Source of the DNA: an uncultured Desulfospira sp.
GTDB lineage: Bacteria > Desulfobacterota > Desulfobacteria > Desulfobacterales > Desulfobacteraceae
NCBI GenBank assembly: GCA_963663165.1
Contig: OY760175.1
Location: 5,728,001-5,792,000, forward strand
DNA length: 64,000 nt
Reading direction: 5' to 3'
Shown here: positions 27,001 through 33,000 of the stretch, one piece after another
Layout: every line of letters begins with the position of its first letter
Numbering within the stretch: the first letter of the stretch is position 1
Made by a program: the position numbers

Positions 27001-30000
27001 ATGTCTTTGTCTATCAGCCGGTTCAGTACCTTCAATGGGCCGAGAACAAGGGCTGTGTAAAATTGCCCACGGACACGTTGTTTTACCACCTCACCCGCAT
27101 GGCCCATATGAGCCATGCCTGTGTGGGCTGCGGCCAGTGTTCCAATGCCTGTCCTTCGGATATCCCCGTGTTTGAGCTGTTCAAGAGCGTTGCGGCATTG
27201 ACCCAGGACGCCTTTGAGTACCGGCCCGGCATGGATGAGGACCAGGCCCCGCCCCTGGCCGTCTTCAGGGAGAAGGAGCTGGAGGAGGTTGTGGGGATTT
27301 CTTAAATAGGCTGAAGGTGGATAGGCTGAAGGCTGAAGGTGGGCAGGTGAGAAAGTGAGAAAGTGAGAAAGTGAGCAGGTGGGAAAGTGAGAATGCCAGA
27401 TTGTTGGTCGGGACTGAAGGTTGGAGATAAATCAGATGAAGGATGTGAGCCTCCGGGGCTGGCACACTTCAGTCTAAACCCCTTCAGCCTAAAAACCTAA
27501 ACCGGGAGGTTGGTATGAAAGACAGTGTTGGTCGGGTGCTGGTGGCCGGGGCCGGGGTGAGCGGGATTCGCTCGGCCCTGGATCTGGCCCGGATGGGTGT
27601 TCAGGTCCTGCTCATTGACAGGGCTGATCACACGGGGGGGCTGCTCAGCCAGCTGGATACCCAGTTCCCGTCCCAGGGGTGCGGGTTCTGCCGGGGGCTG
27701 CCCATGGTGGACCGGGACCGGTCTTCCCAAAGCTGTCTGAGAAAGGGGTTTGCCCATGATAACATAGAAATCCTTTTGTCCACCCAGATCATGTCCATTG
27801 AAGGCGAGGCCGGGAATTTTACCGTGACCCTGAAGCAGGGGCCGGCCATGATTGACCCGGAGCGGTGTATTGGGTGCGGTCAGTGCGAACCGGTCTGTCC
27901 CGTGGAAACAAAGGATTTCTTCAATGCCGGGATGACCCGGAAAAAAGCCGTGTACCTGCCCGTTCCCCAGTCCTTTTCCAATGCCTGGACCATTGATTCC
28001 ACGGCCTGTACCCGGTGCGGGGAGTGTGTGAAGGTCTGCCCGGTGGACGCCATCCGCCTCACGGGGCAGGACCGGGAAAGATTTAAGGTGCTGGTGGTTG
28101 ATGATGAGGCCATTGTCCGGGAGTCCACCCGGGAGTGGCTCAAGGAAGAGGGGTTTTTCACGGCCGCGGCGGATTCCGGGCAAAAGGCCCTGGAACTGCT
28201 GGCGGAAGGGGCGGAAAAGGAACAGCCCTTCAGCATGATGCTCACGGATATCAAGATGCCGGGCATGGACGGGGTGGAGTTGCTCACCCGGGCCAAAGAG
28301 ATCAGCCCGGATCTTACCGTGATCATGATGACCGCTTATGCAGCCGTGGATTCAGCTGTGGACGCCATGAAACTCGGGGCTATGGATTACCTGACCAAGC
28401 CCTTTGACCCGGATGTGCTGGTGGCCATGACCCTTGAGGTGTTCCAGGAATATGAAATGGCCAAGGCCCGTTCGGAAACCGTGGACGCCGTTATTCTTTC
28501 CGCCGGAGCCCGGCTGTTTGAACCGGAACGGACAAAGAATGCCTACGGATATGGGAGCCTTCCCGGTGTGGTCACCAGCCTGGAACTTGAACGGATGCTC
28601 AGCCCGGCCGGTCCGGCCGGCATGGATTTCCTTCACCCGGCCCGGGAAAGGCCGTTGGAGAAAATCGCCTGGTTCCAGTGCGTGGGGTCCCGGGATGTCC
28701 AGGATCAGGCCCCGTTCTGTTCTTCGGCCTGCTGCATGATTTCCATTAAACAGGCTGTCCTGGTCCAGAAACAGGCCAGGAAATCCGGCCGAAAGGTGGA
28801 GACCGTGATTTTTTACATGGACATGCGGACCATGGGCAAACCCTTTGAGCAATACCGGCAGCAGGCCCGGGACGAGTATGGGGTGAGGTTTGTCCGGGCC
28901 AGGATCCATTCCCTTGGAGAGACGGCAGATTCTGAACACCGGCGTCTGATGGCCCGGTATACCGATGATGGGGGCGCTCTTCATGAGGAGGGGTTTGACC
29001 TGGTGGCCCTGGCCGTGGGCACCCGGCCCGGCCGGCAGATGGAGGAGATTTCCAGGGCCAACCAGATTCAGATGAACGCTTTTGGCTTTGTTGAGCCCCA
29101 GGCCTTTTCCCTGGTTCAAACTTCCCGGGAGGGCATTTTTGCCGCCGGCACGGTCACCGGGTTTAATGATATTTCCGACAGCGTTGTGTCGGCATCGGCA
29201 GCGGCCATGGCAGCGGCCAAGGCGTTATCGGCCAACGGCACCCCCCTTTGGAAGCCGCTGGACGACCATGGCCCGGCCCTTCTGGCATCCCTTTCAAGAC
29301 AGATTCCCCAGATCGGAATCATTCTAAGTTTCAATGAAAAAATGGATGAGCCCGGATTCAAGGCCCTTAAGGCAGACCTTGAACGAGATCCGGATGTGGT
29401 CCGGGTGGAGGCCCGGGAAGAATTTGACCTGGACCGGCTGGCTGAGTTTGTCGATAAATTTAAATGCAACCGGCTGATCATAGGGCTTTGCCGGCCCCGG
29501 GAAGGCAGCGGGCTGATGAAATCCCTTCAAAAGGCAACCCGTCTGCCGGACCGGTTTATCGAGGTACTGGACATCAGCCGCCTGGATAATGCCAGGCCCC
29601 ATACCCGTTTGTCCCGGGCACTTAAGGTCAGGGTTTCCCGGCTTAAGTTTTTCAATCCAATGCCCGTTGAAAGCCTGGCAGGCCAGGTGCCTGAACCGTC
29701 CGCCCTGGTCATCGGGGGCGGGATCGCCGGCATGACGGCCAGCCGCTGCATGGCCGATGCCGGGTTCAAGGTGGACCTGGTGGAAAAAGGCGATGCCCTG
29801 GGCGGCAACCTGCGCTGGATGGCGCAGACCCCTCTGGGCCATGATATCCAGGCCTTTCTTGAGGACCAGGTTAAAAAAGTCGAATCCCACGAAAACATTA
29901 TGGTTTATAAAAACAGCGCCGTGGAAGGGGCTGTGGCCGTTCCGGGCGGGTTCACCAGTTTCCTTTCCCGGAAAACCAGCGAACCGGATGCTCCGGACAA

Positions 30001-33000
30001 CTTTTCCGTGACCCATGCCGTCACCCTTCTGGCCACGGGCGGTTCCCAGGCACCGCTGCCGGAAAGCGATTTCACTGACGGCACTCCAAATGCCGTCACC
30101 TTTACCCAGGAAGAATTTCAAAAGGCATTAACGGATGGCCAAGTGGCGCCTGAAAAGCTTGACACCGTGGTCATGGTCCAGTGCTCCGGGACCAGGACCC
30201 CGGCCACCCGGAACTACTGCTCGCGCATCTGCTGTGTCCGGGCCTTGAAAACAGCCCTGGATTTAAAAGAAAAAAATCCGGATATGATGATTTTTATCCT
30301 GTACCGGGACATGATGAGCTTCGGTTTTATGGAAGATCTGTACACCCGGGCCAGAGAAAAGGGGGTGCTTTTTATCCAGTACGAACCGGACCAGCCCCCC
30401 CGGGTTGACATTTCACCTGAAGGGGTGACGGTCACGGCAAGGGACCATGTCCTCAACCGTCCCGTTCAGATCCAGAGCGATGCTGTGATCCATGCCACGG
30501 GCATTGAGCCGGATCTTCCCAGGGGCCTTGCCGAACTCTACGGCGCCGGCCTGGACGAATTTAACTTCTTCAAGGAGGCGGATTACAAATTCAGGCCTGT
30601 GGACAGTATGAACTACCGGGTCTTTTCCTGCGGCCTCTGTCTGAAACCCAGCACCATTGACGAAAGCATTACCCAGGCCCAGGCCGCAGCGGCCCGGGCT
30701 CTCCAGATCCTGGGCCCGGAACGGTTAAGATCCGGCCGGGTGGTGGCCCACACCCGGACGGCCACCTGCACGGTCTGTGAAATGTGCGTCAATGCCTGTC
30801 CCTACGCGGCCCGATCCGTGGACCCCATTGAAGACAAAATCGTCATTGATCCCCTGGCCTGCCAGGGATGCGGGGTCTGCGCCGCGGTCTGTCCCAGTGA
30901 TTCGGCCATCCTGGAAGGCTTTACCGCCCAGCACATGTTCGACACCATAGACCAGATGATAATGGACCATTAAGGAGGTCTCCATGAAAACAATTTTAAA
31001 CGCCGGCACTGCCATTTTCATCCTTTATCCTTCATCCTTCATCCTTTTTGACCGGGGGGTGTGATGACCCAGACAACCAAAGCACCGCCAAAGGAGGTCA
31101 TAAAGGTAAAGGAAATGCTCAAGACCTGCATCCAGTGCGGCACCTGCACCGGGTCCTGCCCCAATGCGCCATTCATGGACTTGACCCCCCGGAAAATGTG
31201 GCGCATGGTCCTGATGGACCGCCTGGACCAGTTGTTTTCAAGCAAGACCTTTATTTTGTGTTCGTCCTGTTACTACTGTACCCTGCGCTGCCCCCGGGGC
31301 CTTGAGCTGACAACGGCCATGGGGTTGTTAAAGCAGGCGTCCTCCAGAATGGATATAAAGGGGGCAAACCGGACAAGGCAATTTTACAAGGCCTTCATGG
31401 ACAGTGTGGAAAAGCACGGCAGGGTCAGGGAAACCGAGTTTATGACCCATTATTTCATGGCCATGAAAAATCCGTTGCTGCCCCTGGAATTTACACCGTT
31501 AGGGCTCAAGCTCATGGCCAAGGGGAAAATGCATTTTCAATCCCCCTTTGCCACGGGAAACAAGCTGTCCAAACTGTTTCAAAAAATCCGGGAACTGGAG
31601 GGCTGATATGGATTACCTTTACTATCCGGGCTGTTCCCTTGAGGGTACGTCGGTTGAATACGATACGGCCACCCGGGTTTTCATGGACTGGGCCGGGGCA
31701 AATCTGACGGAGATAGAGGACTGGACCTGCTGCGGGGCCAGTGCCGCAGAATCAAGGTCTTACCTGCTGTCCCATGTCCTGCCGGCCAGAAACCTGGCCC
31801 TTGCGGAGACCCAGGATGAAACAAACCAGATCCTGGTGCCCTGCAGTGCCTGTTATCTGAACTTGAAAAAAACCGAGCAGGCCGTTAAAAAGGATAAGGC
31901 GTTTTTAGATCAAATTAATCAGGTCCTGGCAGAGGATGGCCTAACCTATCATGGAAGGGTTAAGGTCCGGCACCTGCTGGACGTGCTGTCCCGGGACGTG
32001 GACCCCGGCCGGATTCGCGAACAGGCCGGGAACCGGATGGAAGGTCTTTTGGCCGCCCCTTATTACGGATGCCAGTGCCTGCGCCCATTTGCCGTGTTTG
32101 ACGATCCTGAAGCGCCTTCTTCCATGACCCCGTTGATCCGGGCCACCGGGGCCACGGTGTTTGAATGGGATATGGGGGCCCAGTGCTGCGGGGCTTCCCA
32201 TACCAGCACCAAGCCCGATGCCGGGCTGGCCCTGGTGGAAAAGATCCTGGCCGCAGCCAAAGGCGCGGATCTGATTTTAACGGTCTGCCCCATGTGCCAG
32301 ATGAACCTGGAAGGCTTTCAACAAAAGATCTCCCGGGGCCGGGGGCTTGAAATCCCGGTGCTGTACCTGCCCCAGTTTCTGGGGCTTGCCCTGGGAAAAA
32401 CGGCCGATGAAGTGGGACTGAATTTGAATTTGTCGAATGTGGATAGGCTGAAGGGGATTAGGCTGAAGACTGAAGGCTGAAGGTAAAAAGGACGAAGGAT
32501 GTAGGTCCCCAAGGCTTGTACACTTCAGCCTAAATTCCTATACGGAGTGACATGACCAAACTTTTTTCATACCTGCGCCACAGCCTGGTGTCCAAGCTGA
32601 TTTTTTCAGTGGGGCTGACCGTTGTGCTGTCCATTTCCGCCTGGGCTTATTTTAATATCAACAATATCAGAACCCAGATCATGAAAAATGTGATCGCCTC
32701 CACGGACCGGCTCACCAACTCCATTAAGCTGGGCACCCACTATGCCATGATGCTCAACTCCAGGGACGACATCAACCAGATTATCAACAACATCGCCACC
32801 CAGCCTGAGATCGAGACCATCCGGATTTACAACAAAGACGGCCAGATCAAATTCACCAACAAAGCCGAAGAAATCGACCGGGTGGTGGATATCAAGGAGG
32901 TGGCCTGTGACATCTGCCACAAACAGGACCCGCCGCCGGCCGTGATCGGCCGGGCCCAGCGGACCCGGTTCTTTTCTTCTGAAGACGGGACAAGGCTTTT

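Follow-up and report, generated by a model that had tools for sequence, protein, structure and literature searches.

A receiver domain inserted in a fused double HdrA, encoded in an hdr operon with sensor kinases

Genes of the hdr locus

The features of the locus, all on the plus strand of the window (the whole 64,000-nt stretch of uncultured Desulfospira DNA that was analysed), are collected in Table 1. The gene order is hdrL-mvhD-fdhB-like-hdrA(REC)-hdrC-hdrB-HK2-HK3, and Pfam, NCBIfam and phmmer bear out the operon given in the genome-wide survey's note (hdrA-mvhD/flpD-fdhB-like-hdrA-REC-hdrC-hdrB), as well as the three histidine kinases said to bracket it (HK1, HK2 and HK3). The first gene (g04913), called hdrA in that note, does encode an HdrA, which we refine to an HdrL-type protein (HdrL is defined in PMC2702500) with a GltD/NfnB-like insert: NCBIfam places HdrA2 at residues 17-311, HdrA at 774-1144 and PRK12771/GltD at 300-807, the GltD/NfnB-like module being located at the inserted-ferredoxin region. 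HdrL lies upstream of hdrA(REC) in 33/40 loci, and genes were found for MvhD/FlpD in 47/47 loci, for the FdhB-like subunit in 48/54, for HdrC in 43/57 and for HdrB in 40/55. The FlpD domain starts only at residue 62 of the adaptor ORF, the true start of which is thus probably downstream of 25451. The FdhB-like subunit matches 9t1s_M (4e-39), 8rvu_E (8.5e-35) and 7bkb_E (2e-27), and the HdrB-like subunit the NCBIfam family CoB_CoM_SS_B (E 4e-43). The gene that follows the hairpin downstream of HK3 is convergent in the ORF map.

Upstream lies a sigma-54 activator in which Pfam detects no receiver domain; a similar gene is found upstream in 14 of the 33 related loci whose upstream flank is long enough. 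The promoter-like site between this gene and the next ORF is a weak candidate for a sigma-54 promoter: such sites show no excess across the window (31 observed versus 37 expected from shuffles), and a strict site precedes hdrL in only 5/41 related loci.

HK2 consists, in this order, of a transmembrane segment, a periplasmic domain, a second transmembrane segment, HAMP, two PAS domains, HisKA (H-box IAHELNQPL) and HATPase. Its periplasmic domain carries two haem-c motifs, CDICH (aa 119-123, nt 32906-32920) and CAESCH (aa 162-167, nt 33035-33052), both of which (CXXCH and CX3-4CH-x-H) are retained in 39/39 sequences, and HK2 is therefore probably a periplasmic redox or ligand sensor. The periplasmic part alone matches PF21563 above the cut-off (29.9 versus 27 bits), and the second motif falls on the haem motif of PDB 3b42 in a weak match. 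The start of HK3 (H-box VSHNIKGLL, from the translation) overlaps the stop of HK2 by 4 nt, and HK3 is translationally coupled to HK2.

Table 1. Features of the locus and domains of the fused HdrA (window positions)
Feature	Position	Strand	Basis
Sigma-54 enhancer-binding protein (PAS, AAA+, HTH_8)	18201..19745	+	Pfam Sigma54_activat (E 5e-65), PAS_9, HTH_8
Sigma-54 promoter-like site, TGGCAT-N5-TTGCT	19751..19766	+	One mismatch to TGGCAC-N5-TTGCW
Small Nitro_FeMo-Co (NifX/NifB-C-like) domain protein	19827..20186	+	Pfam PF02579, E 3.4e-8
HK1, hybrid kinase (REC-PAS-HisKA-HATPase)	20470..22038	+	Pfam
HdrL-type HdrA with GltD/NfnB-like NAD(P)H module	22122..25556	+	NCBIfam; Pfam Fer4_20, Pyr_redox_2
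MvhD/FlpD adaptor	25451..26017	+	Pfam FlpD, E 5e-52
FdhB-like iron-sulfur/flavin subunit	26151..27305	+	phmmer, full-length hits to FdhB chains from Hdr complexes
Fused double HdrA with inserted receiver	27515..30973	+	ORF, ATG start, 1152 aa
First FAD (TrxR-like) domain, part a (aa 6-110)	27530..27844	+	Alignment to 5odc_A 144-235
Inserted ferredoxin domain, 2x[4Fe-4S] (aa 111-185)	27845..28069	+	Alignment to 5odc_A 236-310
Receiver (REC) domain (aa 189-314)	28079..28456	+	Pfam; fold match
First FAD domain, part b (aa 318-575)	28466..29239	+	Alignment to 5odc_A 319-507
Middle domain, HdrA N-terminal-domain-like (aa 598-715)	29306..29659	+	Structure-model alignment to HdrA 7bkd_A
Second FAD (TrxR-like) domain (aa 725-1070)	29687..30724	+	6tjr_A (sHdrA) aligns to 730-1065, E 1.3e-32
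C-terminal ferredoxin domain, 2x[4Fe-4S] (aa 1075-1150)	30737..30964	+	Pfam Fer4_10 at 1082-1127
HdrC-like subunit	31061..31606	+	NCBIfam CoB_CoM_SS_C, E 1e-18
HdrB-like subunit (CCG domains), start codon uncertain	31548..32480	+	Pfam CCG, two stretches
HK2, membrane sensor kinase (HAMP-PAS-PAS-HK)	32552..34864	+	Pfam
HK3, kinase (REC-DHp-HATPase)	34861..35985	+	Pfam Response_reg, HATPase_c
Terminator-like hairpin and T-run	36077..36104	+	About 90 nt past HK3

A receiver domain within the fused HdrA

The central gene encodes a fused double HdrA, like BamE in class II benzoyl-CoA reductase and like the fused HdrA found in ANME archaea and in Moorella. That it contains a complete receiver, as first claimed, is upheld by sequence and fold alike. 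Response_reg matches residues 192-305 far above chance (103.9 bits, E 7e-30, model positions 1-109 of 111), with D196, D197, the phospho-acceptor D245, T273, Y292 and K295 all present. In an AlphaFold2 model of the protein (pLDDT 81.3, pTM 0.83), residues 188-317 superpose on the solved receiver 3crn_B over 125/125 residues (Z 20.2, rmsd 1.5 Å), residues 3-575 on HdrA 149-576 (Z 27.4, rmsd 2.0 Å), and residues 596-1151 align to a whole HdrA (7bkd_A residues 5-668). The receiver had been placed after an N-terminal ferredoxin module; the ferredoxin does directly precede it, but the chain opens with half of an FAD domain, giving the order FAD first half, inserted ferredoxin, REC, rest of the same FAD domain.

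REC is inserted where the chain leaves the ferredoxin and re-enters the first FAD domain; in the HdrA of PDB 5ODC the site falls between residues 310 and 319 (by phmmer against 5odc_A, query 6-182 corresponds to HdrA 144-310 and query 318-515 to HdrA 319-507). In four REC-less paralogues of this genome, the stretches that match query 5-186 and query 324-1145 are separated by just some 7 residues, and REC is missing from REC-less relatives as a single clean gap. The linkers are short in the model, where beta1 begins at 191 and the strand at 317-323 comes next after alpha5 (299-314).

The first FAD domain shows GxGxxG and a Cys56/Cys59 pair in part a, the counterpart by alignment of HdrA Cys194/Cys197 and invariant in 72/72 relatives, and in part b the invariant cluster Cys389/402/406/407 with Lys412, aligned to HdrA Lys409. 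Judged from these aligned residues, the first HdrA unit bears the hallmarks of a bifurcating FAD. Pfam FAD-binding motifs lie at residues 8-46 and 730-768. The inserted ferredoxin domain (Fer4_7 at 117-179, Fer4 modules at 111-181) has eight Cys, invariant in 72/72 relatives; the second FAD domain has no such insert, and the ferredoxin domain at the C terminus aligns to 5odc_A residues 514-652. In the middle domain, the relay [4Fe-4S] cluster has lost three of its four Cys, with S605, N607 and D638 in their stead; the four columns hold Cys in 71, 70, 70 and 71 of 72 relatives, and a 92%-identical relative (L011) shares this loss.

Conservation of the receiver and company of kinases

Five catalytic residues of REC (D196, D197, D245, T273 and K295) are invariant in 72/72 relatives at 45-58% identity, as are K247, A274, P296 and the aromatic switch residue Y292. 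Mean identity to the window protein is 0.63 for REC versus 0.47-0.48 for the large FAD-domain parts; REC ranks among the best-conserved domains of the fused HdrA, on a par with those that bind cofactors. The HdrA-REC family is common: frames spanning REC occur in 84 of the 200 Desulfobacterales genomes sampled, a broader occurrence than the note was able to show, and in 5 of about 291 genomes from other orders of the phylum. A single origin is likely, since a 48-row tree computed without the REC columns unites the 14 rows that bear REC in one starred clade (SH-aLRT 95). The domain itself is already annotated, by NCBI as 'response regulator' and in HdlA5, and a receiver domain is listed in the key to Fig. 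S3a of the 2009 genome paper on Desulfobacterium autotrophicum; our literature search found no paper discussing it.

We counted kinases in REC-form loci with the FdhB-like gene immediately upstream and at least 5 kb downstream, taking as orthologues those with at least 40% identity and at least 60% coverage. HK2 orthologues were found in 40/53 loci, HK3 orthologues in 34/53 and any kinase in 48/53, while 13/53 had no HK2 orthologue within the fetched flanks. HK1 look-alikes are found upstream in 9/35 related loci and anywhere in the locus in 17/53. By contrast, where the rare REC-less orthologues lie next to the same hdrL-mvhD-fdhB genes, HK2 is present in 0/4, HK3 in 0/4 and any kinase in 1/4, a comparison of four loci from a few related lineages that are not independent. 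HdrA-REC is also the sole receiver of the locus not joined to a kinase. Seen across relatives, these patterns support a functional connection of the receiver with the kinases encoded alongside it.

Possible roles of the receiver

The reading that we favour, with slightly better than even confidence, is that HdrA-REC is a terminal response regulator with an Hdr-type redox complex as its output, in which phosphorylation would gate the ferredoxin arm. In the structures solved for HdrA and BamE, this arm serves as low-potential exit (for the HdrA electron path, see PMC9012536). In a report on a fused-HdrA structure (bioRxiv 10.64898/2026.04.10.717634), the B-FAD lies in TrxR1 with a Cys59-Cys62 pair, the inserted Fd domain holds E5/E6, and the distance between E3 and E5 shifts from 23 to 12 Å, gating the BamE arm. 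The mobile, gated arm of BamE offers a structural precedent for the proposed role of REC. What the data show is the anatomy of the domains, the site of insertion, the conserved phospho-site and the company of the kinases; we infer phosphotransfer, the kinase responsible, how the arm responds, the substrates and any bifurcation by the complex. Because of the lost relay-cluster Cys, the very branch whose gating we ascribe to REC may be interrupted in this genus. Separately, PMC5109826 reports that the HdlA5BC proteins of Desulfobacula toluolica were not detected in proteomes, which we count against the proposed mechanism.

Phosphorylation might instead govern assembly or partner choice, deciding which complex forms rather than gating electrons, either through dimerisation of REC~P via its alpha4-beta5-alpha5 face, as in NtrC-type receivers, or through binding or release of a module (HdrL-MvhD-FdhB or HdrCB). 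We consider this unlikely, even if REC is NtrC/FixJ-like (top NCBIfam matches FixJ, NtrC and AtoC; closest REC paralogue in its own genome an NtrC-type regulator, 46%), its alpha4-beta5 stretch is nearly invariant among relatives and pLDDT dips to 64-69 at residues 270-300. The set of modules is not constant, as eight loci lack HdrCB but retain HK2 and HK3; yet HdrA-type complexes already dimerise via the HdrA core, according to PMC9012536. Signal flow could also be reversed, the redox state of the flavoprotein altering the rate at which REC gains or loses phosphate, so that the enzyme reports the cellular redox state to an HK2/HK3/HK1 network acting elsewhere, or REC could be a phosphate sink. 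The three kinases and three receivers of the locus would suit such a network, as the HK1 and HK3 receivers could compete for phosphate, and some loci hold a Usp-REC-Usp protein with a closely related REC cassette (in L049, 58% identity over 153 aa), which suggests that one kinase has several targets. This is nonetheless quite improbable: the locus has no conserved HPt and no conserved receiver-bearing DNA-binding or other output regulator, its sigma-54 activator being devoid of REC, a sink would not need a precise hinge insertion in a 1000-residue enzyme, and the enzyme looks like the target since kinases accompany the REC form and not the REC-less one.

That the receiver is a structural spacer or pseudo-receiver, with the adjoining kinases regulating something else, is very improbable, given the invariance of its catalytic and switch residues, its conservation on a par with cofactor-binding domains and its co-occurrence with kinases. 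The canonical phospho-site is kept in 13/14 representative REC forms, but the basal lineage P0129 retains a degenerate receiver, in which P, G and H occupy three positions of the phospho-site and the Pfam score is below the cut-off (24.7 versus 30.2); REC can thus persist without signalling. It is also accessory and dispensable for the core function, because REC-less orthologues occupy the same operon, and the loss of the relay cluster in the window protein indicates that the family tolerates remodelling.

To return to phosphorylation-dependent gating, the kinases of the same operon (HK2 and HK3) would signal to HdrA-REC, and the alpha4-beta5-alpha5 face of REC would change once Asp245 is phosphorylated. 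A linker of just two residues joins helix alpha5 to the strand with which the FAD domain resumes, and in this way the ferredoxin arm would be repositioned or immobilised. Our observations suggest that signalling switches the fused HdrA enzyme directly, and the HdrL-MvhD-FdhB-HdrA-HdrCB complex may thereby be turned on, off or between directions at the post-translational level.

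A receiver domain nested in a fused double HdrA

The genome-wide survey's note had described an HdrA-type reading frame of 1152 residues interrupted by a response-regulator receiver; this open frame is confirmed, and the neighbouring genes listed with it are borne out by the ORF map and by matches to Pfam and NCBIfam models (see the table). The receiver (REC), at residues 192-305, matches PF00072 with 103.9 bits (E 7e-30, cut-off 30.2, model positions 1-109 of 111), and FAD-binding and ferredoxin-type modules flank it on either side. We built an AlphaFold2 model of the protein, hereafter HdrA-REC, on 72 relatives (pLDDT 81.3, pTM 0.83), in which residues 191-314 adopt the (beta-alpha)5 order of the receiver fold. 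Residues 188-317 of the model superpose on the receiver 3crn_B over 125 of 125 aligned positions (Z 20.2, rmsd 1.5 A), and the domain matches Spo0F (3q15_C) with a Z score of 19.9 and an rmsd of 1.0 A. The phospho-site is complete: of the best 120 relatives, 72 were aligned (45-58% identity), and across this alignment D196, D197, D245, K247, T273, A274, K295 and P296 are all invariant (72/72), as is Y292 at the aromatic switch position. Mean identity to the window protein reaches 0.63 in the receiver, 0.65 in the first FAD part, 0.58 in the ferredoxin arm (the inserted ferredoxin domain of the first HdrA unit) and 0.47-0.48 in the larger FAD parts, so that the receiver is conserved as well as the cofactor-binding parts. 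Compared with the 92% identical relative L011, 119 of its 126 positions are unchanged.

Structural alignment splits the model into two HdrA-matching parts, and HdrA-REC is accordingly described here as a fused double HdrA. Residues 3-575 match HdrA residues 149-576 (Z 27.4 and rmsd 2.0 A over 420 aligned residues) and, judging from the model, correspond to an FAD domain with its inserted ferredoxin domain, about 150 residues being left over; residues 596-1151 match the whole of HdrA (7bkd_A residues 5-668, Z 27.7). At the sequence level, 5odc_A aligns in three collinear stretches (query 6-182 to HdrA 144-310, 318-515 to 319-507, and 1015-1151 to 514-652), and 6tjr_A, the small HdrA of Hyphomicrobium, aligns to query residues 730-1065. 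The single chain thus holds two TrxR-like units with complementary domain loss: in unit 1 the N-terminal domain is missing, and the inserted ferredoxin domain is present together with C56 and C59, the equivalents of Cys194/197, while unit 2 has an N-terminal-type domain and lacks both the inserted ferredoxin domain and a Cys at the place equivalent to Cys197. The GxGxxG glycines (G12, G14, G17) and the flavin lysine (K412) of the TrxR-like FAD domain are invariant, and K412 falls by alignment offset on HdrA Lys409 of 5odc_A, which we take to be the lysine at flavin N5 (5ODC numbering). Equally invariant are the FAD-domain [4Fe-4S] motif C-x12-C-x3-CC, present as C389/C402/C406/C407 in unit 1 and C890/C902/C906/C907 in unit 2 (72/72), and all 16 Cys of the two 2x[4Fe-4S] ferredoxins (Fer4_7 at 117-179, inserted; Fer4_10 at 1082-1127, C-terminal).

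The receiver is nested exactly where the inserted ferredoxin domain rejoins the FAD domain, and in the model its linkers are only 2-3 residues long (beta1 starts at 191; alpha5 spans 299-314 and is followed by a strand at 317-323). HdrL, the other HdrA paralogue of the operon, carries a GltD/NfnB-like NAD(P)H module at its own inserted-ferredoxin region, so that two paralogues from one operon hold different foreign modules at the same structural spot. Given this insert and the NfnB-like insertion known in ANME-1, the region seems tolerant of added modules. The genome also encodes four REC-less tandem HdrA paralogues (34-35% identity; C1:427796-430849(-), 3151647-3154664(-), 3881100-3884102(-) and 6547010-6549985(+)), which align on both sides of the receiver with about seven residues between the stretches. 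In two of them a single in-frame TGA lies between the aligned stretches, a possible selenocysteine codon like those described for the BamE/HdrA of relatives.

The receiver is canonical in 13 of the 14 REC-bearing representatives compared. The remaining one, P0129 (1155 aa), belongs to a basal lineage and keeps the inserted domain with D197P, T273G and K295H, its Pfam score of 24.7 falling below the 30.2 cut-off; it is a natural pseudo-receiver control. The window receiver itself has a five-residue insertion, GAEKE (aa 231-235, 28205-28219), in the alpha2-beta3 loop when compared to the 12 other canonical receiver-bearing sequences. At the related locus L049, hdrCB is immediately followed by a gene for a Usp-REC-Usp protein (15024-16337; checked with Pfam in this locus only). 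The receiver of this protein, together with about 15 linker residues at either end, shares 58% identity with the HdrA receiver of the same locus (153 aa). From these sequences, it looks as if one REC cassette has become nested in two host proteins there. Small REC-like genes also occur at the related loci L039, L057 and L077. A Usp-REC-Usp protein was not found in the window's own genome, whose closest paralogue of the receiver belongs to an ordinary regulator of the NtrC type.

The operon and its histidine kinases

HdrA-REC is encoded together with MvhD and HdrB/HdrC, partners of HdrA-type proteins. These partner genes recur at related loci, MvhD in 47/47, HdrC in 43/57 and HdrB in 40/55. The stop of HK2 is overlapped by the start of HK3 (4 nt). 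A terminator-like hairpin follows HK3, and no intergenic terminator-like site was found between hdrL and HK3, which makes a single transcription unit plausible. A search for sequencing runs gave seven holders in two studies, none of them recorded as RNA. The gene beyond the hairpin is convergent (36494-39808, minus strand); its product of 1104 aa carries PKD repeats and, at the C terminus, a dockerin-type domain.

Features of the hdr operon and its flanks in the window
Feature	Position	Strand	Evidence
PAS-AAA+ sigma-54 activator without receiver	18201-19745	+	Pfam
Small Nitro_FeMo-Co protein	19827-20186	+	Pfam
HK1, REC-PAS-HK	20470-22038	+	Pfam
HdrL-type HdrA with GltD/NfnB-like insert	22122-25556	+	Pfam, NCBIfam
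MvhD	25451-26017	+	Pfam
FdhB-like, 384 aa	26151-27305	+	Full-length match to FdhB chains in solved structures of Hdr complexes (E between 4e-39 and 2e-27)
HdrA-REC	27515-30973	+	Pfam, structure model
HdrC-like	31061-31606	+	NCBIfam
HdrB-like	31548-32480	+	Pfam, NCBIfam
HK2, HAMP-PAS-PAS-HK	32552-34864	+	Pfam
HK3, REC-HK	34861-35985	+	Pfam
Terminator-like hairpin and T-run 3' of HK3	36077 to 36094-36104	+	Terminator search

Sigma-54 promoter-like sites lie at 19751-19766 and 20320-20335, in gaps downstream of the receiver-less PAS sigma-54 activator. The window overall has no excess of promoter-like sites, and a strict sigma-54 site occurs upstream of hdrL in only 5/41 loci, being kept only among the nearest relatives; we do not claim sigma-54 control of the operon.

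Within the locus, HdrA-REC alone has a receiver that is not joined to a kinase, the sigma-54 activator having none. HK2 has HisKA and HATPase domains, the H-boxes could be read, and the kinase is both encoded and co-inherited with the receiver. We compared the window proteins with the related loci by tblastn, counting as a match a single alignment of at least 40% identity and at least 60% coverage anywhere in the locus, and retained 53 distinct REC-form loci in which the FdhB-like gene lies just upstream and the downstream flank extends over 5 kb or more. Orthologues of HK2 were found at 40 of these and of HK3 at 34, and HK1-like genes at 17; a kinase of any kind is present at 48 and HdrC at 40. 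Eight REC-form loci without HdrCB keep HK2 and HK3 directly 3' of the HdrA-REC gene. REC-less orthologues in the same hdrL-mvhD-fdhB context occur at five loci (L085, L086, L101, L114 and L124), and at the four whose downstream flank reaches 5 kb the orthologues of HK2, HK3 and HK1 are all missing (0/4), some other kinase being present at one. Of the comparative evidence, the presence of HK2 at 40/53 REC-form loci versus 0/4 REC-less ones, the latter being few and from related lineages, speaks most strongly for kinases that serve the receiver.

The sensor domain of HK2 sits between two hydrophobic segments. Taken alone, this periplasmic domain matches PF21563, the sensor of class 40H chemoreceptors, with 29.9 bits (cut-off 27), and it matches PDB 3b42 weakly (E 0.023), the second of its Cys motifs falling on the CxxCH of 3b42, a family that presumably binds haem. 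Both motifs, CXXCH (aa 119-123, 32906-32920) and CX3-4CH-x-H (aa 162-167, 33035-33052), are kept in 39/39 orthologues. The domain thus resembles the haem-c PAS-like sensors of Geobacter chemoreceptors (PF21563; 3B42, 3B47), yet it has two Cys motifs and belongs to a kinase instead of a chemoreceptor. We infer from these motifs that both may be haem-c sites and that the domain may sense redox state.

Distribution and known relatives

By our reading of the match table, all 120 best matches listed by a word-indexed search carry PF00072. These relatives go by the names 'response regulator' (NCBI), 'heterodisulfide reductase subunit A' (JGI) and, in one case, 'HdlA5' of Desulfobacula toluolica (UniRef). 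A scan of one genome per species, with patterns that included the REC motif, returned 623 stretches encoding relatives. In the window's order, 87 of 200 evenly drawn genomes have a match at E <= 1e-180, a floor, with three candidates scored per genome. A single open frame runs across the receiver in 86 of the 89 matches from these 87 genomes; the remaining three (genomes G004, G011 and G022) are cut by contig ends and were rejected as candidate REC-less forms. Outside the order, the full-length REC form was found in 5 of about 291 genomes (300 drawn from the phylum).

An exhaustive search of representatives at 50% identity found the receiver in 16 of 151 sequences tested. The nearest REC-less proteins, P0128 (44%), P0132 and P0133, match the query no less closely than many REC forms do. 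In a tree of 48 rows (quick method, LG+G4, REC columns removed, complete sequences of up to 1200 aa), all 14 REC rows share one starred clade with two REC-less rows (SH-aLRT 95). The tree is unrooted, and this placement would fit a single gain of the receiver followed by loss.

The same protein family and operon are found in known systems, as HdrA4 of Desulfobacterium autotrophicum HRM2 (locus VIII) and HdlA5 of Desulfobacula toluolica Tol2. The representative P0021, named in UniRef 'HdlA5: heterodisulfide reductase-like protein', is 55% identical to HdrA-REC over its full length and carries PF00072. In HRM2, locus VIII is described with hdrL/hdrA4, mvhD, fdhB and hdrCB, and the key to supplementary Fig. 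S3a of the same article lists a 'Histidinkinase response regulator receiver domaine', the key as available leaving aside which protein is so marked; the word 'receiver' is absent from the main text (PMC2702500). Structurally, the window copy does not differ from HdrA4 and HdlA5, save for three missing Cys of the middle-domain cluster.

BamE, of the class II benzoyl-CoA reductase of Geobacter metallireducens, is alike by its described features, with two TrxR-like FAD units in a single polypeptide, an inserted ferredoxin domain in the first (bifurcating) unit, a Cys pair near 59-62 as well as a ferredoxin domain at the C terminus. It has seven [4Fe-4S] clusters, as the HdrA-REC family consensus has seven cluster-binding Cys sets; its Lys280 corresponds in role to Lys409, and it acts together with an adaptor resembling MvhD and a subunit resembling HdrBC. 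In contrast to HdrA-REC, it has no receiver ('receiver' and 'response regulator' do not occur in the preprint), and its partners differ, being the BamBC tungsten enzyme and BamGHI (bioRxiv 10.64898/2026.04.10.717634). The fused HdrA of ANME archaea (HdrA3/4) and that of the Moorella MetFV-HdrABC-MvhD complex likewise consist of two complementary HdrA units, each protein being its own heterodimer partner (PMC9012536). The ANME-1 HdrA has an NfnB-like insertion at the inserted ferredoxin domain, a counterpart of the NfnB/GltD-type module in HdrL; yet the unit order of fused ANME HdrA is reversed, and the insert of HdrA-REC is a signalling instead of a redox domain. The HdrA of methanogen HdrABC-MvhAGD (5ODC, 7BKB, 8RVU) shares the FAD domain, the inserted and C-terminal ferredoxin domains, the N-terminal-type domain, the equivalents of Lys409 and Cys194/197, and the partners MvhD, HdrB, HdrC and FdhB; it is a single unit that forms a homodimer, whereas HdrA-REC has two complementary fused units and a receiver.

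In CheB, PleD/WspR and RpfG, a canonical receiver is joined to an enzyme and not to a DNA-binding domain, and the cognate kinase is encoded adjacently; their receiver is terminal and regulates a small signalling enzyme. That of HdrA-REC, by comparison, sits within a domain of a redox enzyme that belongs to energy metabolism and binds several cofactors. HdrA-REC is a junction of two known kinds, the fused HdrA and the response regulator with enzymatic output. Within the literature searched, a receiver in HdrA is not discussed by any paper we found, and a preprint on HdrA evolution (10.1101/2024.09.26.615249) contains none of the words 'receiver', 'response regulator' and 'CheY'; Pereira et al. 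2011, a census of response regulators and the genome paper on D. toluolica lay outside this scope and may mention the domain. The protein is real, conserved and already annotated, and apparently undiscussed in the literature.

A candidate phospho-switch on an Hdr-type complex

In solved HdrA structures, low-potential electrons are described to leave the flavin via the N-terminal-domain cluster and the inserted ferredoxin domain (PMC9012536). In BamE, the first unit holds the bifurcating FAD, the Cys59-Cys62 pair is approached by the relay cluster E3, and the distance from E3 to E5, towards the inserted ferredoxin domain, shortens from 23 to 12 A between two states (bioRxiv 10.64898/2026.04.10.717634). 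Since unit 1 of HdrA-REC has K412 (HdrA 409), the C56/C59 pair and the arm, and the receiver sits at the hinge of that arm, we propose that D245 could be the site of a switch. HK2 or HK3 would phosphorylate D245, the phosphorylated receiver would alter where the arm lies or how mobile it is, or else how the complex is assembled, and the Hdr-type complex would be switched by this change. The receiver is intact and travels with kinases; all steps beyond this we infer. We lean slightly towards the receiver being a phospho-switch that acts on the Hdr-type complex, and regard arm gating as the specific mechanism as rather doubtful. Similarly tentative, and on balance unlikely in its entirety, is a chain in which a periplasmic di-haem kinase would read the redox state outside the cell and, through a short kinase cascade, lead to phosphorylation of the receiver at the ferredoxin-arm hinge.

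Several observations count against a switch. One lineage has a degenerate receiver, REC-less orthologues exist, 13 of the 53 REC-form loci have no HK2 orthologue in the flanks examined, and HdlA5BC of D. toluolica was reported as undetected in proteomes (PMC5109826). The window copy itself departs from its family in the middle domain (29306-29659, aa 598-715). The fold of the HdrA N-terminal domain is present there (model residues 596-715 match HdrA from residue 5 onward), and the family has four Cys spaced like those of the N-terminal cluster in HdrA; in the window copy C59 and C659 are kept, and S605, N607 and D638 stand where 71, 70 and 70 of 72 relatives have Cys. The relative L011 (10001-13456; 92% identity) also lacks these three Cys and has other non-Cys residues in their place. 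By sequence, an N-terminal-type cluster is thus a predicted feature of the family and not of the window copy and L011. The middle domain also evolves faster, with an identity to L011 of 0.87 versus 0.94-0.96 in the N-terminal half. If the middle-domain cluster is an E3-type relay, the low-potential path to the arm would be interrupted in this genus; the eight Cys of the arm and the REC site are intact in the window despite this loss.

Hdr-type bifurcating complexes balance the ferredoxin, NAD(P)H and thiol/disulfide pools of anaerobes, and to our knowledge their post-translational regulation is essentially unknown. The HdrA-REC family offers a handle on this question, with one Asp, a defined kinase pair and natural REC-less and degenerate-REC controls, and it is present in about four of ten sampled genomes of the window's order, marine sulfate reducers that account for much of the carbon oxidation in sediments. 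The family shows that a receiver can act as a cassette nested within another domain, and the range of response-regulator targets would be wider if the proposed switch is true. If the chain from a periplasmic di-haem kinase to the arm hinge holds as well, two-component signalling would directly open or close one branch of the bifurcation within seconds, and HdrA-REC would represent the first phospho-control of electron bifurcation and the first response regulator with a core redox enzyme of energy metabolism as its output.
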